DNA from: Candidatus Doudnabacteria bacterium
GTDB lineage: Bacteria; Patescibacteriota; Doudnabacteria; UBA920; 2-01-FULL-46-14
Assembly: GCA_041497195.1 (NCBI GenBank)
Contig: JBGQGB010000004.1
Span: 1,770 to 65,769 of the forward strand
Length of the DNA: 64,000 bases
Direction: 5' to 3'
The notes under the pieces were generated by a model that saw only the letters and a program-made list of their open reading frames with translations, searched no databases and had not been told where the DNA came from. Positions within the stretch are counted from its first letter, which is position 1, and each line of letters begins with the position of its first letter. Positions 10,704 through 37,713 of this stretch are shown here, piece by piece. Both the position numbers and the translations under genes were made by a program.

Positions 10704-10733
10704 AAAAACCCCTCCGTTTCGGAGGGTTTTTTT
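10704..10733. terminator. bidirectional rho-independent terminator between convergent genes
   Basis: AAAAACCCCTCCGtttCGGAGGGTTTTTTT: GC-rich 8-bp stem flanked by an A-run and a T-run. Confidence 0.65.
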
Positions 10734-14333: not shown

Positions 14334-15275
14334 ATGCGCCGTCCGATTATTTTTACCCTGATTTTATTTGTCGGCATTGCCTTGGGGTTTTTTTTCCGCG
14401 AGCTTTTACCGGGGAAGCCTGTGGGCGCCAAGGTGGTCAGGATTGAGAGTCGGGGCTTGAGTTACCATTTGGCGACCAAAGCGAAAACAGTCGGGGAGGC
14501 GCTGGCTGCGGAAAATTTCCAAACGCAGGACAGCCGCATTGTTCCCGATCCCAGCGCATCCCTGACTGGCGGCATGACCATTGAGGTCGCCAAAGCCTTG
14601 ACTGTCAATCTAGTGGATGGCGGCAACCGCAGTCAGGTCGTCACCCACGCCGCCACGGTTGGGGATTTTTTGTTCGAACAAAAAATCGCACTGGCCGCCA
14701 CTGACCGGGTCACCCCGGATTTTTCGCAATTTTTGGGCGAGGGCATGACTGTCACGATTGACCGGATTGTGGATCTAGAAGTTGTTGAGGCTCATGATAT
14801 TCCTTTTGAAATTATCCGGCGCGACGATCCCCTCGTCTTTTACGGTCAAGCAAAAATCCTGACCCCGGGTATATTAGGCCAAAAGGAGCAGACCTTTTTG
14901 ATTACCTATAAAAACGGGGTCGAAATCAAGCGGAAATTGGAGAAAGCCAAGGTTTTGGAAAAACCTCATTCGGAAATTCGCGATTTTGGCACCAAAATCA
15001 TGGTCCAAGAAACCCGGGACGGGCGCGCCAGTTGGTATGCGTTTCGCGGCTGCATGTGCGCGGCGCACCCGTTTTACGCGAAAGGGCGATTCGTGCGCGT
15101 CACTTCAGAAGCCACGGGCAAAAGCATTATTGTTGAGATCAATGACCTTGGGCCGGACCTCGGCATTCATCCCGACCGCATCATTGATCTCGATTCCGTG
15201 GCTTTCAAACAACTAGCCCCGCTGAATTCCGGTACACTGGGAGTCAGGGTGGAGCTTCTCCAAGATGGAAATTAG
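14334..15275 (+). CDS. membrane-anchored cell-wall protein with DUF348/G5-like region and C-terminal RlpA-like double-psi beta-barrel domain
   Basis: C-terminus ASWYAFRGCMCAAHPFYAKGRFVRVTSEATGKSIIVEINDLGPDLGIHPDRIIDLDSVAF matches the RlpA DPBB pattern (ASWYG...AAH..LP...V.V.N..NGKS..VRINDRGP...RIIDLS). The start codon abuts the uvrD stop. Confidence 0.65.
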   Translation: MRRPIIFTLILFVGIALGFFFRELLPGKPVGAKVVRIESRGLSYHLATKAKTVGEALAAENFQTQDSRIVPDPSASLTGGMTIEVAKALTVNLVDGGNRSQVVTHAATVGDFLFEQKIALAATDRVTPDFSQFLGEGMTVTIDRIVDLEVVEAHDIPFEIIRRDDPLVFYGQAKILTPGILGQKEQTFLITYKNGVEIKRKLEKAKVLEKPHSEIRDFGTKIMVQETRDGRASWYAFRGCMCAAHPFYAKGRFVRVTSEATGKSIIVEINDLGPDLGIHPDRIIDLDSVAFKQLAPLNSGTLGVRVELLQDGN

Positions 15276-16206: not shown

Positions 16207-16236
16207 TTGACACGAGGGGTTCTTTTATGCTATAAT
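16207..16236 (+). promoter_or_regulatory. sigma70-like promoter (TTGACA-18nt-TATAAT) at the head of the T4SS-like gene block
   Basis: TTGACA 16207-16212, 18-nt spacer, TATAAT 16231-16236, ~65 nt upstream of the ATG at 16301. Confidence 0.5.
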
Positions 16237-16300
16237 GGTTATAGAAAAATCCAGTATAGGAAACAAAAAGGAAAACAAAAAAACAAAAGAATAAGCCCAA

Positions 16301-17299
16301 ATGGCGTCTTTAATGCATGACTTTTTGGAGAGTCAGCGGCTAGCCCACCGATTCCGTAAATTCGTTTTACCATCGGTCATTTTGCTTGCGGTAGTGGTGG
16401 CTGGGGCCGCTGGTTTTTATTTTTACCAGAAACACCAATCCAACCCGGCTCCTACGGCCAAAGCCAGCACCAGCCAAGTGGCGGGAGCGCAAGCGACTAC
16501 TGCTGCAGCGCAGCAGCTACCCCAGGATTGGGTCTTGAAGTATTTTCATACTGCAAACGAAAATGATCCCAAAGTCGGCGGTGCGGCCGGTGATCCGGAT
16601 CATGATTTTTTGTCGAATTATCAAGAATATATTTACGGGACTGATCCGACCAAAGCCGATACTGATGGGGACGGGTCAGTGGATGGAGCAGAGGTGGCGC
16701 TAGGACGTAGTCCCCTCGGCAGTGGTGATTTGGTGTTAACCAATCAGGAGACCAACTATCTCCAGGACCTGGTAAATTCAAATCAAGATTATGCGAAGTT
16801 TTCTCAGGATAATATCCAAAAACAGTTGACACAGACGTTTCAACCGGACAGAGCCGTAGTCATGGATTTTCCCCAAGATTCGGAAATCGTCATAATTAAT
16901 CAAAACGATCAAGCCGCCTTGGAAAGCTACTACAATAGCATGAAAGCTTTGACTGTTGTCGATCCTAGCGATCTAGTCAAGATGCAAAACGGATTGCTCG
17001 GACTCTCGCAAGACGATTTGAATAATTACATCACCAAATTACAAATCACTGTCAGTTTGCTGGAAAAAGTACCAGTGCCGTCGGGGGTCGTCAACATCCA
17101 AAAATTAAAGATAGCGGAGTTGCGCGCGGGGATACGAATGTTCGAGCTGGTTCGCGACGAATACCAAAACGGGACACCTGCCCCAACTTTTTGGTCGGAT
17201 TTGTTTTACCAAACAGTGATTGCCCAAAACTCCGCAGCTTTACAAGTGGTGGGATGGCAGCAGGTCGGTCAGCTGCTTCGGGATAAAGGCGGGATATAA
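16301..17299 (+). CDS. membrane-anchored hypothetical protein with a calcium-binding thrombospondin type-3-like repeat
   Basis: N-terminal TM helix (FVLPSVILLAVVVAGAAGFYFY). Dx(D/N)xDG repeats (GDPDHDF...DTDGDGSVDGAE). Remainder unrecognised. Confidence 0.4.
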   Translation: MASLMHDFLESQRLAHRFRKFVLPSVILLAVVVAGAAGFYFYQKHQSNPAPTAKASTSQVAGAQATTAAAQQLPQDWVLKYFHTANENDPKVGGAAGDPDHDFLSNYQEYIYGTDPTKADTDGDGSVDGAEVALGRSPLGSGDLVLTNQETNYLQDLVNSNQDYAKFSQDNIQKQLTQTFQPDRAVVMDFPQDSEIVIINQNDQAALESYYNSMKALTVVDPSDLVKMQNGLLGLSQDDLNNYITKLQITVSLLEKVPVPSGVVNIQKLKIAELRAGIRMFELVRDEYQNGTPAPTFWSDLFYQTVIAQNSAALQVVGWQQVGQLLRDKGGI

Positions 17300-17304
17300 A
17301 AAGA

Positions 17305-17726
17305 TGTCCTTACCAAAGAAGAGCCAAAACAGGAACAACAAAAAAATTTATATGGCAGTAGCTTTGATTACCTTGACGGTAGCAGCTTATTTTTTTGTTC
17401 TGCAAATACATCCCGCAGAAGCTTTCCTTTCGAGCACGGCGTGTCCGCCAATACTTCCGCCCCCGTTCAGCTGTTACGGCGGTCCCATAGTCGGCATTAT
17501 CCCCCCGTGGATCCCGCTCATTCCCAATCCTTTTGAATGTCTGGGGCCGCAGTATATCATTGGGCCGCCCCGGCCGGCGATAGTGGCTTTTATTCCAGGA
17601 ATTTCCCGGCTTTACGCTCGTTTTGCTCTTCGTGAGGGCGCAAACGTTTTGGGCAATGCCCTACCGGCGATTCCTTTTATTTGCGGGACCGCGGACATCA
17701 TTATGAAAATCGGGACTAGTTTTTAG
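17305..17726 (+). CDS. small secreted Pro/Cys-rich hydrophobic protein, candidate pilin-like subunit
   Basis: Internal ATG at 17305 (MSLPKKSQNRNNKK) gives a basic N-terminus, a signal/TM helix ending AEA|F, and a ~100-aa mature part with two hydrophobic stretches and 6 Cys. ~140 aa. Size and topology are reminiscent of VirB2/TrbC-type pilins, with no sequence-level proof. Confidence 0.3.
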
Positions 17727-17741
17727 GCAACCCTCCAGTTT

Positions 17742-19694
17742 ATGAAACAAAAATTTCACTTAAAATTTACAGCCTCCCTCCTGCTTTTGACCTTAGCGAT
17801 CAGCCTCGTCTTGGGGCTTTTCGGTGACGTACAACCTGCAAGCGCTCTTTTGGATGTGCCGGTGACAGGCGACGGCGGAGCTTTTGACCGCGTTGATAGC
17901 ATTGGGAGCATTGATACGAGCGGTTATGACCAGGGTCAGCTTCAAAATGAGATCACTCAGACTGCTGCTTCCTCAGCTATGAACGACGCGTTCCAGGCCA
18001 TGGATGGTCAATTTACTAGCAGCGTCGAAACTGACCTCGGAATAGGAAATCCTGCGTATTATGAAGACGCGCTGGTTGAGGGTAAATTCATCCCCGACCT
18101 TTACTCTAAATACAATGGGAGCGATTCTGTTCCTATTGGATGCAAAGGCCTGGGAGTCGATTGTATAGCAGCCACTGAGATGAGTTTGCCTATGAATAAT
18201 ATGACTACAGCCCAGCTCCAGCAGTTAGCTTCTTTGCAAGGTGCCACGGCGGCAAATTCTCCGGCAGCTAGTACTCAGTTGACCCAGGATATCCAAAGAA
18301 TTGTGGTAGGTGCATCTTCGCTGTTTCAACCCTCTATCGCCTGCGGCGGCATAGATGCCAATGCTTTGGATAAAGCCGCCAGTTATCTCGCTGCCAGCAC
18401 TGCCGGAGTGGTGGCCAACCAGATTGATCCTGGCAGCGGAATGAAGTTTTACCAGGATATGAGCAAATTGGGCAGCCCATACGCCACGAACCCTTTTTGG
18501 AAACTCCAGTTGCAGGACACTGCCATGCTCAACCAGTCCAATGCTCGCGGCGCAGCTGCCAACGAAATCAATTCCCCTGGTCTGAAGGCGACTCAAGCCA
18601 CGAGCACAGCCGCCACTCAATATAGTCAAATCCAGCGGACTTTATCGTTGGTTAAAAACGGGGAAGATAGCAGTGGTCAGGCCCTGTTCAATGTTGCGAT
18701 CAATGCGGTCAACGGGACCTACAATACCGCGACTTTTAGAAATTTCCTCATTCAATTGGTTTCCAACGAGCTGGCTAGAATCGCAGCTACGCAAATCAGC
18801 AAATTCGTGGGCTGGATTGCCAGCTTCATCGGCTCTGGGGTTGGCCTTGCGCAAAAAGACCAGTTTAGACTCTTGGCAGAAAATAGCGCCCGGACTATCG
18901 CTCAGGGCTTGATCCAGCATTTCGCAGTCAATTTATTTACTAGACTCAGTCAAAAGATTTTCCAGGGGCAGATTCTAGCTGAGAGTACGCGCTGCCGCCA
19001 GCCGAAGACGCTAGCTAATTTTACCCCCGCGGCCACGACTTTCACTGCTGCGGCCAATACGCCTATTCAAGCCTTTGGCGACACGGGTCCTACGCCGCCA
19101 ACGCCTCCTCCAGGCGGGCCGCCGAGCAGTATAATTTTTAACGCGCCAGCGAGCATCAACGCGGGTGGCACTGTGGTGCTCACTTGGGATGCCAGTGCCG
19201 CGCCCGCAGGCTCTACAGTCACTCTCACTGGCGGCGCCTTGAGTGGCGCGGTTCCGCTGGTCGGCTCGCGCAATGATACGCCGAGTGTCACCACGACCTA
19301 TACCCTGACCGTGACTGGGCCAGGCTTCAATCAGACTGTGCAGCGTACAGTCGTGGTCACTGCCGGGGGAGCGAGTGCTGTGACCTTTGACGTGCAGCCG
19401 CGCTCTGTGGTTGCCGGCGACACAGTCACTATCACCTGGGACGCTTCCGCCATCCCGAACGCGCAAGTGGAAATCTTCCCACTCTCTACATCCCTCCTAC
19501 CAGTTTCAGGTGCGCAGGATTTCACAATCAACGCCACGACTGTTTTCGTTTTTACAGTTGTCGACCCGTCGGGTGCAAATCCTGACATCGCCCGCACCAT
19601 TACTGTCACAGTAACGACTGGCGGAGGTTGCGGTGCAGTGATCTGTGTCCTCGGCGCTCAAACCACTAATCCGCAGTTTGGGGTGAGGGAATAA
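17742..19694 (+). CDS. large secreted protein with C-terminal tandem Ig-like/fibronectin-like repeats
   Basis: Signal peptide (MKQKFHLKFTASLLLLTLAISLVLGLFGDVQPASA). PTPPTPPPGGPP linker. Two homologous ~60-aa repeats (GGTVVLTWDASAAPAGSTVTLTGG... / GDTVTITWDASAIPNAQVEIFP...). Confidence 0.5.
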   Translation: MKQKFHLKFTASLLLLTLAISLVLGLFGDVQPASALLDVPVTGDGGAFDRVDSIGSIDTSGYDQGQLQNEITQTAASSAMNDAFQAMDGQFTSSVETDLGIGNPAYYEDALVEGKFIPDLYSKYNGSDSVPIGCKGLGVDCIAATEMSLPMNNMTTAQLQQLASLQGATAANSPAASTQLTQDIQRIVVGASSLFQPSIACGGIDANALDKAASYLAASTAGVVANQIDPGSGMKFYQDMSKLGSPYATNPFWKLQLQDTAMLNQSNARGAAANEINSPGLKATQATSTAATQYSQIQRTLSLVKNGEDSSGQALFNVAINAVNGTYNTATFRNFLIQLVSNELARIAATQISKFVGWIASFIGSGVGLAQKDQFRLLAENSARTIAQGLIQHFAVNLFTRLSQKIFQGQILAESTRCRQPKTLANFTPAATTFTAAANTPIQAFGDTGPTPPTPPPGGPPSSIIFNAPASINAGGTVVLTWDASAAPAGSTVTLTGGALSGAVPLVGSRNDTPSVTTTYTLTVTGPGFNQTVQRTVVVTAGGASAVTFDVQPRSVVAGDTVTITWDASAIPNAQVEIFPLSTSLLPVSGAQDFTINATTVFVFTVVDPSGANPDIARTITVTVTTGGGCGAVICVLGAQTTNPQFGVRE

Positions 19695-19698
19695 GTTT

Positions 19699-22600
19699 AT
19701 GTTAATGAAGGTCGCAAGAAAAGTTTTTATGAGTAAAGTAGGTATTTTTGCAATATCTATATTATTTTTGTCAGTTTTGTTTCCTCTTGGCGCGCAGGCC
19801 GCTACATTTCAGGCAACTCAAGTCAGCTGGTCAGTACACACCAATGCTACGATTTATCGGGTGGTGGTCGGTGGATCGGCCACGATCCAAGTTCAGGCGC
19901 AAAGTACCCCAGCTCTCGCCGTCGGAGACATAATCGTGACTCCCGGAGGTTCCAACAGAACGATTGCCGCATTTTACGCGGCATATTTTGGTGCGGGGTG
20001 TAGCTTATCATGCGCAGCTGAAGATGAGAGTTCCCACGTTTCTAATGACCCGTTCAGCGTGACCGTGACTACCGATCCTTTCTACAATCCGCCTATTCCA
20101 GCTGGCCAAACCATGGCGACCAGAATCATCCAAGTTTTTCCAGCGGTGGATGTCTCATTTGCGGGAGACGGCAATTTTTTTCAAAATGCGGCGCAGATAA
20201 CTTTGCAAATCTTCAGCGACCAAACTGCACTCAATCAAGCCGCGCAAGCCGCTTGTACGGCCAACCCGAATCAGGTCGGTTGCAATCCCGATGGGACGGT
20301 CAGCAATTCAAGTGTCGGCGGTGCGGCTACTGCGGCAACCACTGGTATATCAAATCCCCCCGGGGTGGGGGATGGACTTCTCGGCATTCTTATTAGCATA
20401 GTCAACATTGTACTCGGGGTAATCATCGCGATTTTACGTTTCCTGGTGTGGCTCATCGGCACTGTCATTGCCGTGCCTTTGCTTGAGTCGACCCTGCAGT
20501 TGCAGGCTGGTAATCTGGCGGGCGGGGTGATTTTGACTGGCTGGACTCTGGTGCGGGATGTGGTCAATATGTTCTTCATCCTATTTCTGATTATTATTGG
20601 CCTCGGTACTATCCTGAAAATCGAGAGCTACAATTACAAAAAGCTCCTGGTCAATCTGATTATGATGGCGCTTTTGGTCAATTTCAGCCTACTCATCGGG
20701 CGCATTATTATCCAGATTGCTGACACGGCTCAGTTCACTTTTCTGCCTTTGGGCACAGGCATAACAGGAGTGAGGGCCCTGTTTCAAAATTTGGTGACCG
20801 GGCCAAAGGAATTTACTGATCCTATCATGATTTTAACCACGGATAAAAATGTGGCGATGGCCTCGACCTTTACAATGCTTTTTCAGTTTATATTTGAAGC
20901 CTCGGTGATCGTGACTTTTTTGGCCATGGCTGTTTTGATGCTCATCAGGACAGTAATGCTCTGGATTTTGCTCATCCTCTCGCCTGTGGCGTATGCTTTC
21001 TACGTTTTGCCAGCCACAGCCAGCATTGCCAAGAAATGGTGGTCAGAGTTTATCAAATACGCCCTATTTGCTCCAATTTTTGCTTTCTTTTTGCGGCTCA
21101 CATTTGTCCTCTATGACCAAGGCCTCAATATTTTTCCTACGACAGCAGCCTCCTTTGCCGGTCGTCCACCCAATTTGATAGGGGCAATAGACGCGCTTTC
21201 TCAGCTACCCGGGGGATTTAATTTCACTCAGGCTTTACAGCTGCTTTTGATCTACATAGTGGTGCTGGCGTTTCTCTGGGCTGGCATGATTGTGGCCAAA
21301 AGCATGGGAGTAATGGGAGCGAGTGGGATCATGAGCATTGGGGAGCGGGGCTTGCGGAGCGGATTTGGATTGAAGCAAATCGGTGGCGGTGCTACAGGTC
21401 TGGTGGCGCGAACATATTCGGGTTGGGTTGGGCGAAAAATTGGCGCGGCTAGTCAGAAGGGAGAACAAGCAGCGAAGGAGGCTCAAAAGGCAGAGCGCCG
21501 GGCAGCCGTACTCCGTGCCGGCGGAAAAATTGTCGAAGCGAAACAGGCCGAGGCACAGGCGACCGCCGCCAGATCTAGACAGCGAGCGGCTTCACTATCC
21601 AGCGGTGGGTGGCGGGCTTTGTCCCTTTTGAATCCGCATGTTGTCAAAGAGGCATGGAAGAAGCGACGGGAAGAAAAAGAATTGCGTGCTTATGGACCGG
21701 CAGTTGGCCATATGCAAGACACTTTCAATCGGATTATGCCGACCGAGTTTCTGAAGTGGAACCGGATGTTGGCTGGTCAATTTGGCAAAAAAACCCCACA
21801 CGGTCTTGTAGGGGAACGTGCTGTGGTTGCCAAAGAAGCTGAAGAGCTTCTCAAGGGTATTCGGACTAGAGAGGATGCGGCAAGAGTCGCGGGCGACGCG
21901 TTTAAATCAGGGGATCATGATGAAATCATGGCTGCCCTGAAAGTCTTGCAGCATGGGAATTGGCAGGATGATTATATGAACCTCGAGGGTAAAACATTCA
22001 GCCCCCTGAAGTATCTGGATCATATTACCGAACAGATGAAAAAGTCAGGATTTTCTAAAGAGGAAATTACAACAATTTTGGATGACCTGAAAGAAACTGG
22101 CGAGCAAACAGGTCGGATTCGTGCTTATGGTTATACCACAGAAGATCCTGACGGCCATATTCGGGCTGCCAATGATCTGTCTTTTTATCAACAACTGAGA
22201 GGTGACGATTTGGCTAAAGTATTCGAGAACCAGGCGGAAAAATTCAAGTTGGCTTTTGACGAAAGCGGAGTGGATGAGTTTGGTAAACAGGCGCGAAGCT
22301 TTGAAAATGCGGCGGCCCAAGCCAGAGCGGGGCAGTCTTTTGACCAAATTTCTACAGTTAAATATATTCCAGATGCGGAGGTGCAGGACGAGAATTCAGA
22401 ATACCATGGTCGTACGGATGTGACGATTCGAGATGCCATGGTTGCGCGAAGGTTTATGGACGAAGCACATATCAAACTCCAGCGCGGTAATGCCGGGGTG
22501 CATGCCAGAAACATCGAAGCCGCAATCATCGTTGACCAGGATCCGGAAAAAGGCTGGACAAACCAGAATGCTTTGGGAAAAATGATGGCACACGAAATCG

Positions 22601-22977
22601 GACCGAATATTATCGAGTCAATCACCGGTCGTATTCACGAGAGTCAAGGTCGCTTGCTCTACGCTTTTGGCGCGCTCCGAGACAAACAGACTGGTAAATG
22701 GACGCCCCCAGATATTAATATTGGGAGTAGAACAGATGTGCAAATCCATGGTATGGCGAGGAACCCAGAAGAGGAGCAAGTCTTAAAGGATCAGCGTGAT
22801 GCTCATCGCACCGCTTGGAACAAAATCATGGACACCCAGAAACTTAACGAAAAGATGTTTAACGCCATTATTGGAAGTCAAAAACTGTTTACTGAAGAAC
22901 AGCGCGATTATTTTAAACAACAATTTAATACTTATGCAACAAACAACCCGAATGAGAGACTTCAACAAATTCCTTAA
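19699..22977 (+). CDS. VirB6/TrbL-like polytopic membrane protein with large charged C-terminal extension
   Basis: Signal peptide and ~190-aa extracytoplasmic domain, then ~7 hydrophobic helices between aa ~215 and 560 in a TrbL/VirB6-like arrangement, then a ~500-aa hydrophilic K/E/R/A-rich tail. Sits upstream of the PrgI-like and VirB4-like genes. Confidence 0.5.
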   Translation: MLMKVARKVFMSKVGIFAISILFLSVLFPLGAQAATFQATQVSWSVHTNATIYRVVVGGSATIQVQAQSTPALAVGDIIVTPGGSNRTIAAFYAAYFGAGCSLSCAAEDESSHVSNDPFSVTVTTDPFYNPPIPAGQTMATRIIQVFPAVDVSFAGDGNFFQNAAQITLQIFSDQTALNQAAQAACTANPNQVGCNPDGTVSNSSVGGAATAATTGISNPPGVGDGLLGILISIVNIVLGVIIAILRFLVWLIGTVIAVPLLESTLQLQAGNLAGGVILTGWTLVRDVVNMFFILFLIIIGLGTILKIESYNYKKLLVNLIMMALLVNFSLLIGRIIIQIADTAQFTFLPLGTGITGVRALFQNLVTGPKEFTDPIMILTTDKNVAMASTFTMLFQFIFEASVIVTFLAMAVLMLIRTVMLWILLILSPVAYAFYVLPATASIAKKWWSEFIKYALFAPIFAFFLRLTFVLYDQGLNIFPTTAASFAGRPPNLIGAIDALSQLPGGFNFTQALQLLLIYIVVLAFLWAGMIVAKSMGVMGASGIMSIGERGLRSGFGLKQIGGGATGLVARTYSGWVGRKIGAASQKGEQAAKEAQKAERRAAVLRAGGKIVEAKQAEAQATAARSRQRAASLSSGGWRALSLLNPHVVKEAWKKRREEKELRAYGPAVGHMQDTFNRIMPTEFLKWNRMLAGQFGKKTPHGLVGERAVVAKEAEELLKGIRTREDAARVAGDAFKSGDHDEIMAALKVLQHGNWQDDYMNLEGKTFSPLKYLDHITEQMKKSGFSKEEITTILDDLKETGEQTGRIRAYGYTTEDPDGHIRAANDLSFYQQLRGDDLAKVFENQAEKFKLAFDESGVDEFGKQARSFENAAAQARAGQSFDQISTVKYIPDAEVQDENSEYHGRTDVTIRDAMVARRFMDEAHIKLQRGNAGVHARNIEAAIIVDQDPEKGWTNQNALGKMMAHEIGPNIIESITGRIHESQGRLLYAFGALRDKQTGKWTPPDINIGSRTDVQIHGMARNPEEEQVLKDQRDAHRTAWNKIMDTQKLNEKMFNAIIGSQKLFTEEQRDYFKQQFNTYATNNPNERLQQIP

Positions 22978-23001
22978 ATAAAACAAAAAACATCTTAAGG
23001 A

Positions 23002-24432
23002 ATGAGTATATATATGGATATAAAAGACGAAAAAAAAATTCCTATTTCAGCAGCCCCCCCAAATCAGGTAACTAGCCCAGAACAGATAGTTAGCATTACT
23101 TGGGATAATTTTAGCGTGCTTCAACCAGAATGGTTGGAAGATGAGAATATCTTGTATCAACTGAAGCTTTTTGTGCAGGACATATCGGATAGTGGCGACG
23201 CATCTGATGCAAGTCAGGCTTTCGTGCTTTTGCATCAACTTTTGCAAAAATTGCCGCTCCTGGTGCAGAATCACCCCGATGTTTATCGGGAATATCTTCG
23301 ATTGCTGACTGTTTTAAAGGCTTGTTTTTTGTCCTTGATGCCGGATGGGGACATTCATAATTTTCTCCGAGATGAGTTGACTCTGTCTTTGGAAGTCCAG
23401 GATTTTGACATTAAGGACAAGCTGAATGATTTATTGCTGGTCTATAGACAATTTCCAGACGTACAAGCAAATTTTGCACAGGAACTATTGAAGCCAATTG
23501 AAGAAAACCAAGAATATTTAGGCACTGATCCAATTGTCATCCGCGGTCATGACGATGAACAATTGCCCAGAATTGCTAACTGGCTGGTAGATTATACCCA
23601 GTTTGTAGTAAGCAAGACCAAGCTGGGGGCATCGGTCGTTAGAGCAGGGGGTTTGGAGCGGGCGACGTATCTTTCGCAAAGTCCGAACTCCCGGCGTCTT
23701 ACTGAAGACGAGCGAGATATTTTGAAGAGGCTTTTAGAATTGCACGATTGGTTGAAAGCTTTTGTTCCAGTCCCACAGGCTAGCGAGGCTACTGCGGCCC
23801 TACCGAATTATATAACTACCCAACGAGAGAAGATTAGTGTGCCCCCTCCTCCCCGGCCAGTACAACAACGCCCGCAAGCCCCTGTTTATAGAGCGCCGGC
23901 AATTCCCCCACAGCCAGCTGCTCCACAGCCGCGGGTCACTCCGAGTCTTGTGGTGCCGAGGACTCAGGTGCCACCAGCCCAGCCGCGGCCATCAGTTTTG
24001 CCGCCAGCGCCAAAACCCGCTGCTACCTCAGTGCGGCCGTCTATGACGTTTGCTCCGACGCCGCCCCAGGCTGCAGCGCCCTCTCCCGCGCCCCAATCTT
24101 CGGCTAATGAAGATTTGTACCGTTCCACCCTTGAGGAGCTGGCAAAGATGAGGCAGAAAGAGGCTGCCCAAACGCCCGGAAGATCAGTGAGTGCTAGCCC
24201 CAAACCCTCGGGCCCGACCATCGTGCCGCTGTCTGCAGGGCCAGGTCGGCCTGCGGCCTCAGTGGCCCAGGGGCCAATGCGCCCGATGAAACCAATGGAA
24301 CCTTTTTCGGTAAATGAAGCTCTGGTCCACGGGGATTTGAATCCTGATCTCAATGATCGCGGGGAAATGGTGTCAGGAGACAAAGATGACGTGGCAAAGA
24401 AATTGAAGGATTTGGAAGACAGGGTCAAATAG
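23002..24432 (+). CDS. hypothetical protein with central proline-rich low-complexity region
   Basis: No TM segment. A ~270-aa N-terminal globular part is followed by PPPPRPVQQRPQAPVYRAPAIPPQPAAPQPR... No known motif recognised. Confidence 0.4.
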   Translation: MSIYMDIKDEKKIPISAAPPNQVTSPEQIVSITWDNFSVLQPEWLEDENILYQLKLFVQDISDSGDASDASQAFVLLHQLLQKLPLLVQNHPDVYREYLRLLTVLKACFLSLMPDGDIHNFLRDELTLSLEVQDFDIKDKLNDLLLVYRQFPDVQANFAQELLKPIEENQEYLGTDPIVIRGHDDEQLPRIANWLVDYTQFVVSKTKLGASVVRAGGLERATYLSQSPNSRRLTEDERDILKRLLELHDWLKAFVPVPQASEATAALPNYITTQREKISVPPPPRPVQQRPQAPVYRAPAIPPQPAAPQPRVTPSLVVPRTQVPPAQPRPSVLPPAPKPAATSVRPSMTFAPTPPQAAAPSPAPQSSANEDLYRSTLEELAKMRQKEAAQTPGRSVSASPKPSGPTIVPLSAGPGRPAASVAQGPMRPMKPMEPFSVNEALVHGDLNPDLNDRGEMVSGDKDDVAKKLKDLEDRVK

Positions 24433-24454
24433 TTAGAGGGCCTTTGTTTACGTT

Positions 24455-25381
24455 ATGCCAATGGCAGATCTCGACCGGTTGAAATCAAAAATTCAAAATT
24501 CCACTATCCTCTCCGACAGCGAAAAAAAGGAGTGGCTTTTTTTGTTGCCGAAAATGACGCCGCCCCAGATGCAAGAGCTCAATGAGGTGCTATCTTCTCA
24601 TAAGTCGCTACAGTCACAATCAGTACCTGCGCAAAAATTGCCAGCTACTGAGGAAAAATCGGCAGTTAGCTCGCTTCAGACAAATGTAAAGCCGTTGATG
24701 CCCAATCAGCCGGCCACGCCAACCCCGATGACAAAACCTGCCGGGCCGGCTGCTATCCCTGCTGACGCACGATATTCAGAAGAACCGACTAAACCGTTAA
24801 CTACCGCGCCGAAGCCGTCTGTCCCTGCATCGGTAAAACCAATTGTAGTACAGCCGATAGACTCAAACCGCAGACCAGAGACCAAGCCCGGAGTAAACAT
24901 TTTGCCAGACAAAGTAAAAATCGCAGCCAAGCCGCTTGATTCGTTCAAGCCGGTAAACAGCGCGATGGTCCCGCCGCGAGACGCTTCAGTCAAACAATCG
25001 CTAACCGCGCCAGCCGGCATGAGCAAGACCAAACTTGATCCAGTGGTCAAGCCAGGGAGCGGCCAGAGCGTGAAAGCCGTCCAGGCCGCCTCGGACGAGT
25101 TGGGGAAATTGCGCGCTTTGGCTGTTGCTGATTTGCGGCAGGCCCCGTCTGTGTACGTGTTCCTCGAAGATCTGGCTAAAAAGATGAATGAGCTGAAGAA
25201 ATACCGCGAGCTCAGTCTGGAACAAATCACTTCCAGTTTTGAACAGAGTCCGTTGTATCATACTTATCTGGAAGCTGGCCTAAAGATCATGGACAAGCAG
25301 GAATTTGACCGGTTGTCGCATTCCGAATTTGAGGCCATGGCTGATTTTCGGGCTTCTTTGCGCAAACTTTTGAGCAAGTAA
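24455..25381 (+). CDS. hypothetical proline-rich protein
   Basis: 308 aa, P/K/A/S-rich central region (PATPTPMTKPAGPAAIPADA...) and a C-terminal helical segment. No known motif. Confidence 0.4.
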   Translation: MPMADLDRLKSKIQNSTILSDSEKKEWLFLLPKMTPPQMQELNEVLSSHKSLQSQSVPAQKLPATEEKSAVSSLQTNVKPLMPNQPATPTPMTKPAGPAAIPADARYSEEPTKPLTTAPKPSVPASVKPIVVQPIDSNRRPETKPGVNILPDKVKIAAKPLDSFKPVNSAMVPPRDASVKQSLTAPAGMSKTKLDPVVKPGSGQSVKAVQAASDELGKLRALAVADLRQAPSVYVFLEDLAKKMNELKKYRELSLEQITSSFEQSPLYHTYLEAGLKIMDKQEFDRLSHSEFEAMADFRASLRKLLSK

Positions 25382-25661
25382 GGGTTTTTTGTCCCTATAA
25401 CCGCCAAGAACCCAGGCCCCTAGCGGGGATTTTTTGTATATTTGGAGGATTGTGCTATAATAAAAACACTTTAAAAGTGAAGATTTGAAAGCAAAACTCA
25501 AACTAAGGGTTAAATTTTCAGTTCTCAATTTGCAATTTTCAATGCCTGAAGTTTCAAAAAGAAGCGCAGGAACTTACTTTGATATTTCAAAAGATTACCA
25601 ACTCGTTAAAGCGAGCTAGCCGGATTGAATTTAATGAAAATTGAGAATTTGAAATTGAAAA

Positions 25662-26138
25662 TTGTTTTCCATGCAGTCATATAGCCTCCCACAATTCATT
25701 GAGGTGGAGGACAAGATCATCGGGCCTTTGGGCATCAAGCAGTTTTTGTTTCTGCTTTGCGGCGGTCTCATATGTTTGGGCATTTGGAGCGTTGCTCAAT
25801 TCAGTATTTTTTTCTTCCTCCTGGCAGCGCCGGTGATGATAGTCGTCATCGCCTTGGCGTTTGGCAAGTTTAACGGCCGGCCAGTAATGAGCAATGTCGC
25901 CGGGCTAATCAAATTCCTCTCCTCACCGCGTATACGGGTCTACCAGCGTACTGGCGACAAGGAATTGTCAGAGGTGACCAAAGCACCGCGCAAAGTTGAA
26001 ATGGTGGAGACCGAAGCTCCGGAGCAGGTCGACAGCCGGTTGAAGCGCCTGGCGTATCTGCTGGACCAGCAGTCAGCGGAAGAAAAGCGGCTCATCGAGA
26101 CCGGGCAAATGAAACAGAAATGGTTGAACCAAATCTAG
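25662..26138 (+). CDS. PrgI-family (VirB3-like) small membrane protein of Gram-positive-type T4SS
   Basis: Pattern IEVEDKIIGPLGIKQFLFLLCGGLICLG then two TM helices then PRIRVYQ closely parallels the PrgI/TcpD family (…LTKRQLICF…PKIRVYQ…), as recalled from family alignments. Confidence 0.65.
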   Translation: MFSMQSYSLPQFIEVEDKIIGPLGIKQFLFLLCGGLICLGIWSVAQFSIFFFLLAAPVMIVVIALAFGKFNGRPVMSNVAGLIKFLSSPRIRVYQRTGDKELSEVTKAPRKVEMVETEAPEQVDSRLKRLAYLLDQQSAEEKRLIETGQMKQKWLNQI

Positions 26139-26144
26139 CTAGCC

Positions 26145-26885
26145 ATGGAAATGCAGACGAACAAATTGCGCAGAAACAAACCGACTGAGTCCACTCAGAA
26201 GTATTTGAATATTTCGCAAATCAAAGAGGGGGTCATCGTGATGAAAGACAAAAGTTTGCGCTCCATTCTGGTGGTGTCCTCCACCAATTTCGCTCTCAAA
26301 TCCGAAGAAGAACAAAATGCTTTGATCGCCGCCTATCAGAATTTTTTGAATTCCCTGGATTTTCCCATCCAGATTTTGATTCATTCGCGGGTGCTGGATA
26401 TCGACGGGTATTTGACCAAGCTGCGCGGCCTTGCTTCGGGTCAGACCAACGAGCTGCTGCGCATCCAGATGAGCGAGTATATCGAGTATGTCGGCAAGTT
26501 GGTGGAATACGCGAGCATCATGACCAAAACTTTTTATGTCGTGATTCCTTATTCAGTTGCAGTGGCCACCAAAGAAACTTTTTTCGGCAGAATGAAGAAG
26601 GTACTCAATCCCGCCGCTACCATCACCGCCAACCAGGAAGATTTTCAAAAGCAGAAACTCAAACTGGAAGAGCGGATCGAACACATCGCCGGCTCCCTGG
26701 GCGGCATGGGTTTGCGCAGCATGGTGCTCAACACTCAGGAACTGATTGAACTTTTGTATACTTCTTATAATTTTGAGACTGCATCCCCTCTGCATCCGGA
26801 GGCGATGGGTGAGATTCAGCTGACTGACTCGACCCCGGATCTGGCCATGCCCAGCAGGTCAGGAGGGCTGAAGGTGGGGACCTAA
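26145..26885 (+). CDS. N-terminal domain of VirB4/TraE/PrgJ-like conjugal ATPase, encoded as a separate ORF
   Basis: ISQIKEGVIVMKDKSLRSILVVSSTNFALKSEEEQNALIAAYQNFLNSLDFPIQI matches the conserved N-terminus of Firmicutes VirB4 homologues (IKDIxDGIIITKDxxYVKIxEVxPINFxLxSxxEQ). Ends with TAA at 26883-26885. The next ORF is in a different frame. Confidence 0.6.
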   Translation: MEMQTNKLRRNKPTESTQKYLNISQIKEGVIVMKDKSLRSILVVSSTNFALKSEEEQNALIAAYQNFLNSLDFPIQILIHSRVLDIDGYLTKLRGLASGQTNELLRIQMSEYIEYVGKLVEYASIMTKTFYVVIPYSVAVATKETFFGRMKKVLNPAATITANQEDFQKQKLKLEERIEHIAGSLGGMGLRSMVLNTQELIELLYTSYNFETASPLHPEAMGEIQLTDSTPDLAMPSRSGGLKVGT

Positions 26886-26919
26886 AAAAAGCAGGCAGTT
26901 TTTGTTAGCATAAAATTTT

Positions 26920-28731
26920 ATGGCCGAAAATCCGCAACCAAAAAAGCCCACGAAAAAAAATTCCGCCCATCAACTGCTGGAGGCAGAACGGGCTTTTCGC
27001 AAAGGCCTGACTTCGGTCAAAGATCTGATTGCCCCTTCGGCTGTGAGGATTGAGGCGTCCTATCTGCAAATTTCCGGCAAATTTGCCCGGACGTTTTTCA
27101 TTTTGACCTACCCGCGCTACCTCTCGAGTAATTGGCTAGATCCGATCATCAACCTGGATGTGCCCATGGATGTGTCGTTTTTTGCCTACCCGATGGAGTC
27201 AGACCAAGTCATGAAAAAACTGCGTGACAAGGTCGGCCAGCTGCAGGCGTCCATCGCGATCAACGAGGACAAAGGCGAGGTCCGCGACCCAATGCTGGAA
27301 ACGGCTTATCACGACGTGGAAGAACTGCGCGACAAATTGCAGCAAGGTACTGAGCGATATTTCCGATTTTCGCTGTATTTCACGATTTACGCCACCGATC
27401 CGGTCAGCTTGGACAAAATTTCCTCGAACATTGAGTCAATGCTCTCGTCCAAACTGGTCGTGGCCAAGCCCGCGATTCTGCAGGCTGAGGCCGGATTCAA
27501 TTCCACTCTGCCCTTGGGAGATGACGAGCTGGCTATTTCCACCAACATGAATACCGGGCCGTTGTCCACGACGTTTCCTTTCGTGTCGTCGGAACTGACG
27601 AGCAATGACGGCATCTTGTACGGGATCAATCGGCACAACAACAGTCTGATTTTATTCGACCGGTTTCAGATGGAAAACGCCAACTCCGTGGTGTTTGCCA
27701 AATCCGGTTCCGGGAAATCCTACGCCGTCAAGCTGGAGATTTTGCGGTCGTTGATGCTGGGGGTGGATGCGATCGTGATTGACCCGGAAAACGAATACAA
27801 ACATTTGACCGAAGCGGTCGGCGGCGCTTTTCTCAACGTTTCTCTCAATTCGCAGTCGCGCATCAATCCGTTTGATTTGCCCAAAGCCATCGAGGGTGAG
27901 GCGCCGGAGGACGTACTGCGTTCTGCGGTGATCAACCTCATGGGACTGATGAACTTGATGCTGGGCAAGCTCGACCCGACCGAGGAAGCGATCATGGACC
28001 GGGCTTTGTGGGAAACTTACGCGACGCGCGATATCACGCCGCAGGTGGATTTTACCAACGCAGAGATGCCCACCATGGCCGAACTGGTGAACGTGCTCGG
28101 CGGCATCGCCGGGGGCGAGAGTCTGGCGCAGCGATTGACCAAATATACGGAAGGGACGTTTTCCGGGATTTTCAACCAGCCGACGAATATCAATTTGGAC
28201 AACCAACTGGTCGTGTTTTCGGTGCGGGATTTGGAGGATTCCCTGCGGTCCATCGCTATTTATGTCATTTTGACGTTTATCTGGAATGAGGTCCGCTCGA
28301 TTTTGAAAAGGCGGATTTTGGTCATTGACGAAGCCTGGTGGATGATGCAGCACGAGGATTCGGCCAGATTTTTGTATGGCATCGCCAAGCGGGCCCGCAA
28401 ATACTATTTGGGGGTCACCACCATCAGCCAGGATGTCCAGGATTTTTTGCAAAGCCCGTACGGCAAGCCAGTGGTGACCAACTCGTCCATTCAGCTCCTG
28501 ATGAAGCAGTCGCCCACAGCGATTGACATCGTGGCCGAAACTTTTTATCTGACTGAGGGCGAAAAATATCTCTTGCTGGAGTCTGAGGTGGGGGAAGGGA
28601 TATTTTTTGCCGGGCTCAAGCATGTCGCTATCCGAGTGGTGGCCTCGTACACCGAGGATCAGATTATCACCACTGATCCGCGGCAGCGCATCGAAATTGA
28701 GAAAGCCAAAGAACAGCTGGGAGGGACCTAA
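26920..28731 (+). CDS. VirB4/TraE/PrgJ-like T4SS ATPase, central and C-terminal ATPase part
   Basis: LIAPSAVRIEASYLQISGKFARTFFILTYPRYLSSNWLDPIINLDVPMDVSFF block. Walker A VVFAKSGSGKSYAVK. VIDPENEYK. Walker B ILVIDEAWWMM. TTISQD. 603 aa. Confidence 0.85.
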   Translation: MAENPQPKKPTKKNSAHQLLEAERAFRKGLTSVKDLIAPSAVRIEASYLQISGKFARTFFILTYPRYLSSNWLDPIINLDVPMDVSFFAYPMESDQVMKKLRDKVGQLQASIAINEDKGEVRDPMLETAYHDVEELRDKLQQGTERYFRFSLYFTIYATDPVSLDKISSNIESMLSSKLVVAKPAILQAEAGFNSTLPLGDDELAISTNMNTGPLSTTFPFVSSELTSNDGILYGINRHNNSLILFDRFQMENANSVVFAKSGSGKSYAVKLEILRSLMLGVDAIVIDPENEYKHLTEAVGGAFLNVSLNSQSRINPFDLPKAIEGEAPEDVLRSAVINLMGLMNLMLGKLDPTEEAIMDRALWETYATRDITPQVDFTNAEMPTMAELVNVLGGIAGGESLAQRLTKYTEGTFSGIFNQPTNINLDNQLVVFSVRDLEDSLRSIAIYVILTFIWNEVRSILKRRILVIDEAWWMMQHEDSARFLYGIAKRARKYYLGVTTISQDVQDFLQSPYGKPVVTNSSIQLLMKQSPTAIDIVAETFYLTEGEKYLLLESEVGEGIFFAGLKHVAIRVVASYTEDQIITTDPRQRIEIEKAKEQLGGT

Positions 28732-28734
28732 CCT

Positions 28735-29727
28735 ATGCCAGTCTTGGAAGACGAAGAAATTGACAATGATGTAGGGGATGACAGGAGAGCGCGTTCCTAC
28801 CGAGAAGAACAGCAAAAAAAAGCCCAGCTGCAGCAGCAACGACAGGAGGAAGAATTGAGGCGGCAGGAAGAACTGCAGATGCGGCAAGCCCAAGACCGCC
28901 AGAGAAAGCAGCAAGCCGCCAAAGATCTGCAAAGACGAGTGGCCATCAAAGCGCTCGAAGGAAACGAGGCTGGAGCAGTTGAAGAGTTGGCCAAACATCC
29001 GGGCACCGCGGCAAAAGTCGCCGGGAAAAAAATAGTTCGACAGGCCTTGCTGGCCCTGCTCGAATGGGCCTTGCCATTTCTATTGATTGTTTTGGGGATA
29101 ATTTTGGTGGTCGTGATCGTGATTGTGGTGGCAGTTTATGAGTGCAACTCGACCTCCTGGCATGGCCGCCTGGCGCAAGTCAGTTCTACGGTCGTGGGAT
29201 TTTTTGGAGGCCCTGATTTTTGCGCATATTTCAAAGATTTCAAAGGCGTCGGGACTTTCATTGACCAAGCCCAGATTCCGTCGCCAGGAGGCCCCGGGGG
29301 TGGGCGGTGTGTACCAGTCACGTCCGGCCCAGCCACGGTAGCAAATTTGAGTCAGACTTGTTTTGGTGCCAACGCCCAGCAAGCTTCCAGTATCGCTAAC
29401 GTGGAAAGTGGCGGCAACCCCCTTGCCCATGGTGACCAATGTGCAGATGGAAGTTACGCTTCGTGGGGCCTATTTCAAATCAACATAAGCGCAAATAGCA
29501 TTGCGGGGCTTGATTGTCCAAGTGCATTCGACAAGCCGGCAAATTCCGCCAGTCTCATTGACCCAGTCGCAAATATTTACGATTGTCATGTCGTTAATCC
29601 TGCTCTCTACAGCGCCTGCGTTTCAGCTGCCCGTGATCCGGCAACCAATATTCAAGCGGCTTGCCAAATTTCCAGTAATGGGACGAACTGGCGACCCTGG
29701 GGAGCAAACTCGATTTGTAATTTTTAA
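28735..29727 (+). CDS. T4SS-associated VirB1-like lytic transglycosylase (coiled-coil, TM helix, SLT-like domain)
   Basis: N-terminal Q/E/R-rich coiled coil. TM helix (LPFLLIVLGIILVVVIVIVVAVY). Extracytoplasmic domain with ESGGNP ... GSYASWGLFQIN, resembling the catalytic ES / GLMQ motifs of family-1 lytic transglycosylases. 8 Cys. Confidence 0.5.
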   Translation: MPVLEDEEIDNDVGDDRRARSYREEQQKKAQLQQQRQEEELRRQEELQMRQAQDRQRKQQAAKDLQRRVAIKALEGNEAGAVEELAKHPGTAAKVAGKKIVRQALLALLEWALPFLLIVLGIILVVVIVIVVAVYECNSTSWHGRLAQVSSTVVGFFGGPDFCAYFKDFKGVGTFIDQAQIPSPGGPGGGRCVPVTSGPATVANLSQTCFGANAQQASSIANVESGGNPLAHGDQCADGSYASWGLFQINISANSIAGLDCPSAFDKPANSASLIDPVANIYDCHVVNPALYSACVSAARDPATNIQAACQISSNGTNWRPWGANSICNF

Positions 29728-29738
29728 AAACTTGAATT

Positions 29739-30212
29739 ATGTCCACTAGGTTAAAAATATTTCTGATAATTGGCGCAATCATCATCCTGACGGGTTTAGT
29801 TTGGTTTTTTGTTTTTTCACATCCGCAGAATCCTGCCAATAACCAGATACAGAATAATAATCCCTCCCAGGGAAACGGTACACAAACGCTGAATATTTCT
29901 ACCCCTCAGGGGATAGTGCCTGTGAGAGATTTTACGAAACAACCGGTGGAGGCAGTCGCGGGGACTATGGCTCTCGCCGAAACGAAAGATTATCAGATTA
30001 TTTATTTTACGCAAGATCGGTCATTTGAAATCACTTTGCTTTCACGGCCGATCGCGCAAGCGCAGCAATTAGCAGAAAGCGCCTTTTTGAATCTCCTTGG
30101 AGTGTCACAAGCCGGTGCCTGCAAATTGAACGTTCGTGTCTCAGTGCCCTACAGGCTAGATCCCGCCGCGGCAGGTGGAAACCAGGGTTTGAGTTTTTGT
30201 ATCGGCCAGTAA
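29739..30212 (+). CDS. hypothetical membrane-anchored small protein
   Basis: N-terminal TM helix (LKIFLIIGAIIILTGLVWFFVF), 157 aa, no known motif. Confidence 0.35.
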   Translation: MSTRLKIFLIIGAIIILTGLVWFFVFSHPQNPANNQIQNNNPSQGNGTQTLNISTPQGIVPVRDFTKQPVEAVAGTMALAETKDYQIIYFTQDRSFEITLLSRPIAQAQQLAESAFLNLLGVSQAGACKLNVRVSVPYRLDPAAAGGNQGLSFCIGQ

Positions 30213-30275
30213 AACAGGAAAGTCTCGAAACCTTGCATTGACAACAGATCAACTAAAAGTCAGAAGAAACTTTAA

Positions 30276-31310
30276 ATGCGAAATAGAATTTTATTGATAA
30301 TTTTGGCGCTTCTGGTAGTCGGTATTGTCGTATTTTTTTCCGTAAAAAAGTTTGGCCATCATCAGTCGCCAGTAGTACCTGTTGCCAAAGTCCCAGTATC
30401 GCCGCTAAAGTCCTTGGTCAGCGAACTGGTCATTTCCCCGATCCTGTCTTTTGACGGGCAAAAGGTCTGGTTTATGACCGCTGACGGAAAAATGTTCCGG
30501 AAAAATATTGATGGCACCACTGACAAAGAGGAGTATGTCTTGCCGCAAAAATTTCAGGATGCGACTTCGGTGATCTGGCCGGACCAAGGAGGAAATTTTA
30601 TTGTCGTGGAGAACCTCAGCGGCCATACCAGATACAATTTTTTTGACTCATTTGCCAAAGCCTTTACGCAATATCCGGAATTTGTGCGCGATCCCCGTTT
30701 TTTGCCAGGCGGCAGCAAGATTGTCTATGATTGGACCGCTACTTCCACCCAGGATGATCTGAAAATTTCCGACTCGAACGGGAGCAATTTTTCCAAAGTC
30801 ACCACTCTCTTGCGCTCGGATTACGAATTTGTCCCGTCTCCGGCAAAACAAGAGATGGTAGCTTTTACCAAAGATATGACTGACCCGACTCCGCTGTTTA
30901 TCGTGGATTTGTTCACTGGCAAATTCCGCGCCATCACTGCAAAAGCGCCCTATCAGGGTGTGAGTTTTTCACCGGATGGGAACCAGTTGTTGATTGCCAG
31001 AATGTCGGCCAAAGCAGGGGCTGACCCGAGTCTGGAGCTTGTTGATTTGCTCACGAACAAAGCCTTTGACCTTGGGCTGGCAGCGCCGATTGAACAAACT
31101 GCGTGGAGGAAAGACAGCCAGTCGATATATATCGGTACGAGTGGAAGTATCACAAAATTTGACGTGGCTACTCAGCAGAAGAGCGAAGCGTACAAATTCG
31201 CGGACACGGAAAAATATCAGCCCACGAATTTGTTCGCTCATCCGCAGCTGTCGGTTCTGTTTTTTGTGGATCAAAAAACCGGCTTTCTCTATCGGTTGGA
31301 TTTGAAATAA
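30276..31310 (+). CDS. membrane-anchored TolB-like/PD40 beta-propeller protein
   Basis: N-terminal TM helix. Repeated F-S-P-D-G-x-x-L/I-type segments (SFDGQKVWFMTADG, FLPGGSKIVYDW, FSPDGNQLLIARMS) resembling PD40/WD40-like propeller blades. Confidence 0.4.
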   Translation: MRNRILLIILALLVVGIVVFFSVKKFGHHQSPVVPVAKVPVSPLKSLVSELVISPILSFDGQKVWFMTADGKMFRKNIDGTTDKEEYVLPQKFQDATSVIWPDQGGNFIVVENLSGHTRYNFFDSFAKAFTQYPEFVRDPRFLPGGSKIVYDWTATSTQDDLKISDSNGSNFSKVTTLLRSDYEFVPSPAKQEMVAFTKDMTDPTPLFIVDLFTGKFRAITAKAPYQGVSFSPDGNQLLIARMSAKAGADPSLELVDLLTNKAFDLGLAAPIEQTAWRKDSQSIYIGTSGSITKFDVATQQKSEAYKFADTEKYQPTNLFAHPQLSVLFFVDQKTGFLYRLDLK

Positions 31311-31448
31311 ATAGTGGAAACAAAAAAATACGGGAGCTAGGCTCTTTCCAGAGAATGAACTGCTTCATCCAAAGGATTGAGTCTAGCCCCCGCGGTTTGC
31401 CGGGGCTATCTTTTGGGCGTCCGGCGCTGGGGAACTCTGTAGGGTCAG

Positions 31449-37641: not shown

Positions 37642-37713
37642 AATAACTGGATGCTGTTTCCCCAGGGGAGAGGGCGGGATTTTCACCCAGCACCATTTTT
37701 TTAATCTGCCCAA

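Follow-up and report, generated by a model that had tools for sequence, protein, structure and literature searches.

A chromosomal type IV secretion locus without a coupling protein or relaxase gene in a Doudnabacteria-like member of the Patescibacteria

What does a type IV secretion system (T4SS) do when its genes stand at a fixed place in a bacterial chromosome, with neither a coupling protein nor a relaxase encoded beside them? The question is raised by a block of genes in a 64,000-nt stretch of contig JBGQGB010000004.1 (the window, to which all coordinates and strands refer; the genes of the block are labelled g1–g12). A first-pass annotation, made from the letters of the sequence, had described a co-directional T4SS-like block of the Gram-positive conjugation type, seated in a chromosome, possibly that of a bacterium from the candidate phyla radiation (CPR), and distinct from a classical conjugative element. 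Comparison across 80 related loci has upheld this description. The block reads as an intact copy of a known type of chromosomal, relaxase-less T4SS of the Patescibacteria, published in 2023–2025 (PMC12102498; PMC12857230; PMC11665869). The identity of its parts, their intactness, their conservation and their context are matters of observation, and we consider it likely that the whole is a vertically inherited, non-conjugative translocon for interaction with a host cell. T4SS are near-universal in the Patescibacteria, and in the single species so far examined, a Saccharibacterium, the system proved essential; the present locus does not settle their role. It adds to the parts list a fully syntenic Doudnabacteria example and a set of conserved accessory genes (g5/g6, g12, the g3-type gene and g2).

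The block was found to consist of 12 consecutive plus-strand open reading frames (ORFs) between 16301 and 31310, where fourteen genes had been counted (Table 1). The gaps between them measure 3–63 nt, with the single exception of the 280 nt that separate g6 from g7, and no unannotated gap is big enough to hold a missed gene. All 12 ORFs are intact, and the Walker motifs are present.

The T4SS assignment stood to fall with profile hidden Markov model searches, and in these the PrgI, VirB4 and SLT_3 proteins of the block all scored above the curated cut-offs of their families. The PrgI/VirB3-like protein that had been proposed is g7, which matches Pfam PrgI (PF12666) with 33.9 bits against a cut-off of 27 and has a hydrophobic hairpin. 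For the comparison of relatives one genome per species was scanned, which gave 80 loci (L numbers) with a related VirB4; a g7-type gene is present in 75 of them, and a public gene call records a 155-aa product. The ATPase is g9. Its best NCBIfam model, of monoderm type, is the equivalog conju_CD1110, a VirB4-like conjugal transfer ATPase, which is matched over profile positions 179–732 (361.8 bits; cut-off 325), and in Pfam it matches P-loop_TraG (82.8 bits), AAA_10, DUF87 and CagE_TrbE_VirB. In PDB it matches 4AG5, the VirB4 C-terminal domain structure (E 1.7e-44), and TrwK (2.4e-4). Walker A (AKSGSGKS, from the translation) and Walker B (ILVIDE, at residue 466) are both intact.

The first-pass annotation had seen a VirB4 ATPase spread over two ORFs. 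The ATPase is real, and the second ORF, g8, is a conserved gene of the TrsD/TraD type. In the NCBIfam search g8 matches the first ~170 positions only of four VirB4 models: VirB4_plasma (E 2.1e-9, profile positions 92–233), TIGR00929 (5–170), CD1110 (9–163) and PRK13853. Its match to the TrsD/TraD model NF041427 (E 1.1e-5, 25.3 bits) is under the curated cut-off of 200, and a public gene call for a protein identical to g8 carries PF26593, TraC-like. Because the CD1110 profile is tiled by g8 (9–163) and g9 (179–732), the two genes would together make up one VirB4 in two parts. The two-ORF arrangement (225–258 aa followed by ~600–620 aa) has been kept in 77 of the 80 related loci, and relatives of g8 were found by tblastn on 366 plasmids, mostly from Bacillus and Clostridium, where they adjoin VirB4 and where one is annotated TrsD. 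The conservation of the split in the related loci and its occurrence on Firmicutes plasmids argue against a frameshift. To judge by these comparisons nothing is broken here: a conserved gene of TrsD/TraD type stands beside a short VirB4, which is the normal arrangement of the two, and annotators should not label the split VirB4 a pseudogene. An hhalign comparison of the g8 family with the VirB4 family gave nothing (probability 0.4%), as is to be expected because g8 corresponds to the segment that is absent from the short VirB4 and is no paralogue of the VirB4 N-terminus. The family profiles of g4 and g8, run against PDB sequences, returned coiled-coil noise or nothing.

The same order of genes as in g7–g11 is seen in Bacillus cereus pJ7_3 (NZ_AP022939.1), where a PrgI/VirB3-like protein, a TrsD-like protein, a short VirB4 (~600–620 aa), a lysozyme-family hydrolase and a small transmembrane (TM) protein follow one another. 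The similarity extends to the proteins themselves: g8 matches the TrsD-like protein of pJ7_3 with E 6e-19, and g9 is 28% identical to its VirB4 over the full length (E 5e-69). A separate TrsD/TraD is also found in pGO1/pSK41, which are of the TrsC-TrsD-TrsE-TrsG type, and g7–g9 can be likened by gene names to such systems (pGO1, pIP501). The prototype MPF_FATA plasmid systems carry a relaxase and a type IV coupling protein (T4CP). In contrast to the Firmicutes plasmid modules of this class, which lie on mobile replicons, the block described here is chromosomal and fixed, and is joined to a very long VirB6-like protein (g4) and to lineage-specific genes. It would be a form, peculiar to this lineage, that derives from the conjugation machinery of monoderms (MPF_FATA).

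The position of the block in the chromosome is conserved as well. Among the relatives the recurrent order is ksgA, g1, a g3-type gene, g4, g5/g6, PrgI, g8, VirB4, g10, g12 and recG, the last on the minus strand, followed by genes for a 161-aa TM protein, DUF5667, a sigma factor, comF and clp. VirB4 identity to the window copy across the 80 loci is about 65–85%, and RecG diverges in parallel with VirB4 (41–63% identity across the relatives). Most of the loci are named Candidatus Doudnabacteria, as are the closest VirB4 relatives, or bear generic CPR labels; the best 120 VirB4 relatives in the database are 73–100% identical, and nearly all of those that carry a name belong to the CPR. The host, suspected from the outset to be CPR-like, is by this measure a Doudnabacteria-like member of the CPR/Patescibacteria. 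The synteny comparison had been suggested as a check, and block order and flanks proved to be conserved throughout these Doudnabacteria-type loci. The conserved ksgA–block–recG...comF order across 80 Doudnabacteria-type genomes argues that no integrated element is involved and that the block is a fixed, vertically inherited chromosomal locus of the lineage.

The flanks themselves consist of housekeeping genes, as had been noted for ksgA upstream and for recG and tRNA-Arg downstream. All non-block ORFs of at least 150 aa in the window to which a family could be assigned are of housekeeping or cell-envelope type. Upstream are IleRS, RecO, a DUF11 surface protein, an M23/LysM peptidase, UvrD, an Rpf-like G5/DPBB protein and KsgA; downstream are RecG, tRNA-Arg, an ECF-type sigma factor with its DUF5667 partner, a ComF-like protein and a Clp ATPase, and farther on RecX, GatA/B, MiaA, ThrRS, DnaE, FtsW, L25 and purine genes. 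The tRNA-Arg gene is ~3 kb from the block, with recG in between. An Rfam scan of the window gave three tRNAs and nothing else.

These features agree with what has been published on the T4SS of this group. Quinonero-Coronel et al. (2025) found VirB4 in 2,417 of 3,035 Patescibacteria genomes, and nearly all of these proteins form one clade nested in MPF_FATA (PMC12102498). Close to virB4 they found TrsD, the commonest partner, PrgI/VirB3, VirB6 and often VirB2-like pilins, with ksgA in the neighbourhood and, in class ABY1, comF, recG and radA (PMC12102498). Like the T4SS of the Patescibacteria clade, including that of Southlakia epibionticum ML1 (PMC12102498; Wang et al., 2023), the block is chromosomal in a CPR host with ksgA or recG/comF nearby; it has VirB4 with an adjoining TrsD-like gene, PrgI/VirB3, a putative VirB6 and a hydrolase 3′ of virB4; and relaxase and T4CP are absent from the locus. 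It differs in that no VirB2-like pilin gene or array is detectable, such arrays being a hallmark of the loci of Saccharimonadia and Microgenomatia. It differs also in g5/g6, g2, the g3-type gene and the PD40 propeller, which, like the Doudnabacteria, are unnamed in the main text of PMC12102498. What the locus adds is the list of accessory parts, the evidence from fused g5–g6 genes, the undetected VirB2 and VirB8 at this locus, and the native split of VirB4.

The remaining conserved parts of the core are the VirB6-like protein, the cell-wall hydrolase and the propeller. The TM profile of g4 shows a signal or anchor, an external domain of ~190 aa, ~6 TM helices (227–533) and a cytoplasmic tail of ~560 aa, and an alignment of orthologues places the conserved core at residues 280–540. 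Pfam TrbL (PF04610) is matched by 21 of 26 positional orthologues that share this TM core (best E 2e-8). The VirB6/TrbL-like character first given to g4 would thus hold by way of its orthologues, not through the window protein. A g4-type gene is present in 58 related loci, and the protein fits the ‘extended VirB6’ type (PMC12857230). The VirB1-like lytic transglycosylase was recovered in g10, which matches Pfam SLT_3 (PF18896) with 37.3 bits against a cut-off of 27 and SLT weakly, and has an ESGG motif at residue 224; its homologues, in 41 loci, are 253–1218 aa long. For g12, which had been called TolB-like, the match to the TolB propeller model TIGR02800 (E 1.1e-5) is under the cut-off, and 18 of 25 orthologues contain PD40 repeats (best E 6e-11), which bears the assignment out. 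The 67 loci with a g12-type gene all have it between VirB4/g10 and recG.

The two proline-rich proteins, g5 and g6, are confirmed as such by linkers with 24% and 17% proline. Neither has a TM segment, and g5 is without a Pfam match. The N-domain of g5 is found in 56 loci, the C-domain of g6 in 69 and its N-motif in 49. In an alignment with fused homologues the N-motif of g6 is seen to repeat the helix region with which the g5 N-domain ends. A single fused g5–g6 ORF, without separate copies, is present in 12 genomes (loci L010, L012–L016, L018, L020, L021, L054, L064 and L065); the predicted model of a fused homologue has a predicted local distance difference test (pLDDT) score of >90 for each of the two domains and did not match any specific fold. 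By the fusion in 12 genomes, g5 and g6 read as the halves of one protein and as one functional unit. The pair looks like a single gene that was duplicated and then underwent complementary degeneration, each copy keeping one globular domain.

The other proteins of the block are anchored or secreted. The first of these, g1, had been described as a TM protein with a calcium-binding repeat. It has one TM segment (residues 21–39), and the repeat is sub-threshold only, with 22.1 bits for TSP3_bac against a cut-off of 25; the TSP3 region of CglD is matched with E 2.7e-6. Homologues of g1 were counted in 22 loci, a number limited by the reach of the flanks. In two more distant loci (L060, 12288–18203; L065, 13126–18193) the genes that follow VirB4 are not g10–g12; they encode two or three tandem large proteins (700–995 aa) that match g1, presumably by TSP3-type repeats. 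These loci would combine the same core with another external module.

The large secreted protein with tandem Ig-like (immunoglobulin-like) repeats is g3. It has a signal-like TM segment (9–27), and its internal repeat scores 115, compared to 35 ± 7 in shuffled sequences. The family occurs in 33 loci at the same position, 5′ of the VirB6-like gene, with C-termini that vary among beta-sandwich types (SdrD_B, PKD, CarboxypepD_reg), and g3 is a candidate surface or adhesin component. The small secreted protein g2 comes from a narrow family that evolves fast; 1.84 billion representatives yielded 5 clusters of it. Its predicted model, from a shallow alignment of 5 sequences, has a signal helix and an OB-like beta-barrel. 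The earlier suggestion that g2 is pilin-like was abandoned: as a VirB2-type pilin it is rejected, since it matches no pilin family and is modelled as a beta-barrel, not as a two-helix pilin. The OB match, obtained with a shallow alignment, is a resemblance at the level of the fold and no evidence of DNA binding.

The small TM protein foreseen near the end of the block is g11. It matched no Pfam or NCBIfam family and has close relatives in 8 other loci. Elsewhere its slot is taken by an NTF2/TcpC/VirB8-like protein without demonstrable kinship to g11, with matches to TpcC in two members (E 9.5e-5) and to VirB8 in one (E 0.024). A VirB8 identity for g11 is unsupported; the jackhmmer family merges two subgroups, and the TcpC/VirB8/NTF2 matches are only in the other one.

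Table 1. Positions of the block genes and associated sequence features in the window.
Feature	Coordinates	Strand	Description
P1	16207..16236	+	promoter-like site, TTGACA-18-TGcTATAAT, upstream of g1
g1	16301..17299	+	N-terminally membrane-anchored surface protein, 332 aa; one TSP3-type Ca-binding motif (sub-threshold), helical C-terminal domain
g2	17352..17726	+	small secreted Cys/Pro-rich protein, 124 aa; ATG 17352; starts of longer ORFs at 17220 and 17304
g3	17742..19694	+	secreted protein, 650 aa; family-specific N-terminal region, two tandem ~80-aa Ig-like C-terminal repeats
g4	19699..22977	+	extended VirB6/TrbL-like polytopic membrane protein, 1092 aa
g5	23002..24432	+	cytoplasmic protein; all-alpha N-domain (~1-260), Pro-rich disordered linker, degenerate C-tail
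g6	24455..25381	+	cytoplasmic protein; short N-motif, Pro-rich linker, all-alpha C-domain (~200-308)
g6-g7 spacer	25382..25661	+	280 nt; weak hairpin and T-run at ~25417-25437; extended -10 TGcTATAAT at 25453-25461
g7	25662..26138	+	PrgI/VirB3-like small membrane protein; likely start ATG 25671, giving 155 aa
g8	26145..26885	+	TrsD/TraD-like, separately encoded N-terminal VirB4 segment, 246 aa
g9	26920..28731	+	VirB4-family ATPase, short form, 603 aa
g10	28735..29727	+	VirB1-like cell-wall hydrolase; cytoplasmic coiled-coil N-terminus, one TM (116-134), external lysozyme-like domain
g11	29739..30212	+	small membrane-anchored external protein, 157 aa; TM 7-25, conserved Cys pair
g12	30276..31310	+	membrane-anchored external PD40/TolB-type beta-propeller, 344 aa
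Terminator-like hairpin	31388..31405	+	five G-C pairs then T-rich tail, 3′ of g12; consensus match only

Assembly, substrate and direction of transport we infer as follows. The proteins g7, g8 and g9 would form a membrane-bound motor, carried by g4 as the membrane channel; g10 would open the peptidoglycan; g1, g2, g3, g11 and g12 would make up the external or contact part, with g5/g6 as a lineage-specific cytoplasmic partner. Our preferred reading is that such a machine would move macromolecules across the CPR envelope upon contact, in the interaction of the bacterium with its host. The lack of VirD4, TcpA, relaxase and integrase, remarked upon at first reading, was confirmed: none of these domains was found in the ~50 ORFs of at least 150 aa in the window. 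Since coupling protein, relaxase, integrase and oriT-associated genes are all missing from the locus, which has a fixed place between ksgA and recG, the block is most likely no conjugation device. In S. epibionticum the T4SS is reported to be essential for epibiotic growth, with comEC dispensable (PMC12857230; PMC11665869), and the roles suggested for the system are effector delivery or nucleotide import (PMC11665869; PMC12857230). T4SS without a T4CP, or of import type, are known to import DNA or to export proteins, among them Helicobacter ComB, Bordetella Ptl, Brucella VirB and archaeal Ced (PMC12857230; PMC11665869). The block would resemble these in needing neither a coupling protein nor a relaxase from its own locus; they differ from it in being diderm or archaeal, with other accessory sets, and show no specific sequence relation to it beyond VirB4.

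Several observations weigh against a host-interaction translocon. The window copy of g4 has no direct Pfam or NCBIfam family match. No window protein matches VirB8, TcpC or PrgL, and no match to VirB2/TrbC or T4SS_pilin was found in the window, in a profile scan for pilins that covered ORFs of at least 60 aa. A coupling protein might act in trans: VirD4 homologues are present in most Patescibacteria genomes, and T4CP genes are mostly distant from virB4, so that conjugation or T4CP-dependent secretion is conceivable (PMC12102498). Finally, the role of the T4SS in Patescibacteria has been called ‘completely unknown’ (PMC11665869).

The same machine could instead import DNA or RNA, in the manner of ComB or Ced, for recombination or nucleotide salvage tied to recG, comF, recX, recO and uvrD, which we hold to be rather unlikely. 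The absence of T4CP and relaxase from the locus would suit import as well, and recO, uvrD, recG, the ComF-like gene and recX lie within 25 kb, the recG...comF part in a conserved order. A similar neighbourhood has been described for class ABY1 (PMC12102498), the T4SS has been named as a candidate route of nucleotide acquisition (PMC11665869), and according to a 2026 preprint a cultivated relative feeds on host RNA and has tubular structures, possibly pili of a T4SS (10.64898/2026.06.21.733656). The OB-like barrel modelled for the secreted g2 could be fitted to the same scheme. However, recG and comF lie on the strand opposite to the block, with which they are not co-transcribed, and CPR genomes are tiny and gene-dense, which makes neighbourhood weak evidence. 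The barrel was modelled from 5 sequences, g2 is rich in proline, hydrophobic and poor in basic residues, and the ligands of secreted OB folds are commonly other than nucleic acids. The similarity of g9 to CedB is just a P-loop match, with 41.6 bits against a cut-off of 700. A more elaborate proposal is that the Doudnabacteria version is a distinct pilin-less variant, in which g2, g3, g12 and g5/g6 replace the VirB2, VirB8 and coupling functions and which imports host nucleic acid for RecG, ComF, RecX and RecO; we regard this as quite improbable.

It is very unlikely that the block is a T4SS for conjugation or mobilisation that draws its coupling protein and relaxase from genes at other places in the genome. 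Its machinery is homologous to the conjugation systems of monoderms, and most Patescibacteria genomes are reported to have VirD4-like genes, usually far from virB4 (PMC12102498). Relaxases, however, are found in just 103 of the 3,035 Patescibacteria genomes (PMC12102498), and none is encoded in the window; in S. epibionticum the t4cp homologue is reported to be non-essential and the other T4SS genes essential (PMC12102498); and the locus is fixed and appears to be vertically inherited. An integrated conjugative element near tRNA-Arg, or a remnant of one in decay, as might be suspected from the ~3 kb between the two and from small mobile-looking genes in the g6/PrgI spacer of some relatives, is extremely improbable: no integrase or relaxase was found in the window and no att-like direct repeats around the block, recG separates it from the tRNA, its G+C (0.46–0.53) does not differ from that of the flanks, its 12 ORFs are all intact with their Walker motifs, and the same flanks recur in dozens of species-level genomes.

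The expression of the block may also be considered. The good promoter claimed for the head of the block was found exactly at the predicted start, 16207: P1 agrees with the sigma-70-type consensus at 12/12 positions, has a TG extension and is the top-scoring site in the 16-kb region scanned, and we infer that it functions as a promoter. The spacer between g6 and g7 contains an element identical to the extended –10 element of P1, with a poor –35, so that it was missed by the consensus scan. The spacer is a possible second promoter, for the PrgI-to-propeller genes (g7–g12).

This spacer is also a place of change among the relatives. In 27 of 72 related loci an unassigned ORF, and no g6-type gene, stands directly 5′ of PrgI; it is nearly always of 100–155 aa, with one of 368 aa (L013). 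By eye the small ORFs would encode four-helix-bundle proteins of the 23S rRNA intervening-sequence type, PIN-domain proteins, GxxExxY/PD-(D/E)XK-like proteins and a GIY-YIG protein. The g6/PrgI spacer, which is empty in the window, appears to be a hot-spot for insertions within the T4SS locus (L001–L064).

Five of the genes around the block may be noted together: RecO (8171–8926), UvrD/PcrA (12237–14333), RecG (32117–34192), the ComF-like protein (38039–38755) and RecX (41350–41817) are all encoded within ~25 kb of it. This clustering may not exceed chance in a genome of ~1 Mb; the recG...comF side is conserved in relatives. Wall and surface genes stand directly upstream, namely those for the DUF11/cohesin-like protein (8946–10697), for the M23 peptidase with LysM repeats (10732–11895, minus strand) and for the Rpf-like G5 and DPBB protein of lytic transglycosylase fold (14334–15275). 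M23 and LysM domains have been noted on some VirB1-like proteins (PMC12102498).

Three further ORFs may be mentioned. A 448-aa ORF on the minus strand (27652–28998) lies opposite VirB4 and g10; its translation is partly of low complexity, and it is most likely a chance ORF. The 161-aa protein beside recG (34511–34996, minus strand) has two TM helices and no Pfam match and is conserved at this place in 44 related loci; that it belongs to the T4SS is not obvious. A 184-aa ORF (37186–37740, minus strand) overlaps the 3′ part of tRNA-Ser (37714–37804) by 27 nt and has no homologue in the related loci; its true start probably lies further downstream.

A VirB4 that is ~75% identical to g9 was also met on contigs or proteins labelled Verrucomicrobiia, Acidobacteriaceae and Methylomirabilota (L011, L040; P0061, P0070, P0089). 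These labels are probably binning or labelling errors in metagenome-assembled genomes. One of the contigs, L040, has PrgI-, g8-, g10- and g12-type ORFs as well.

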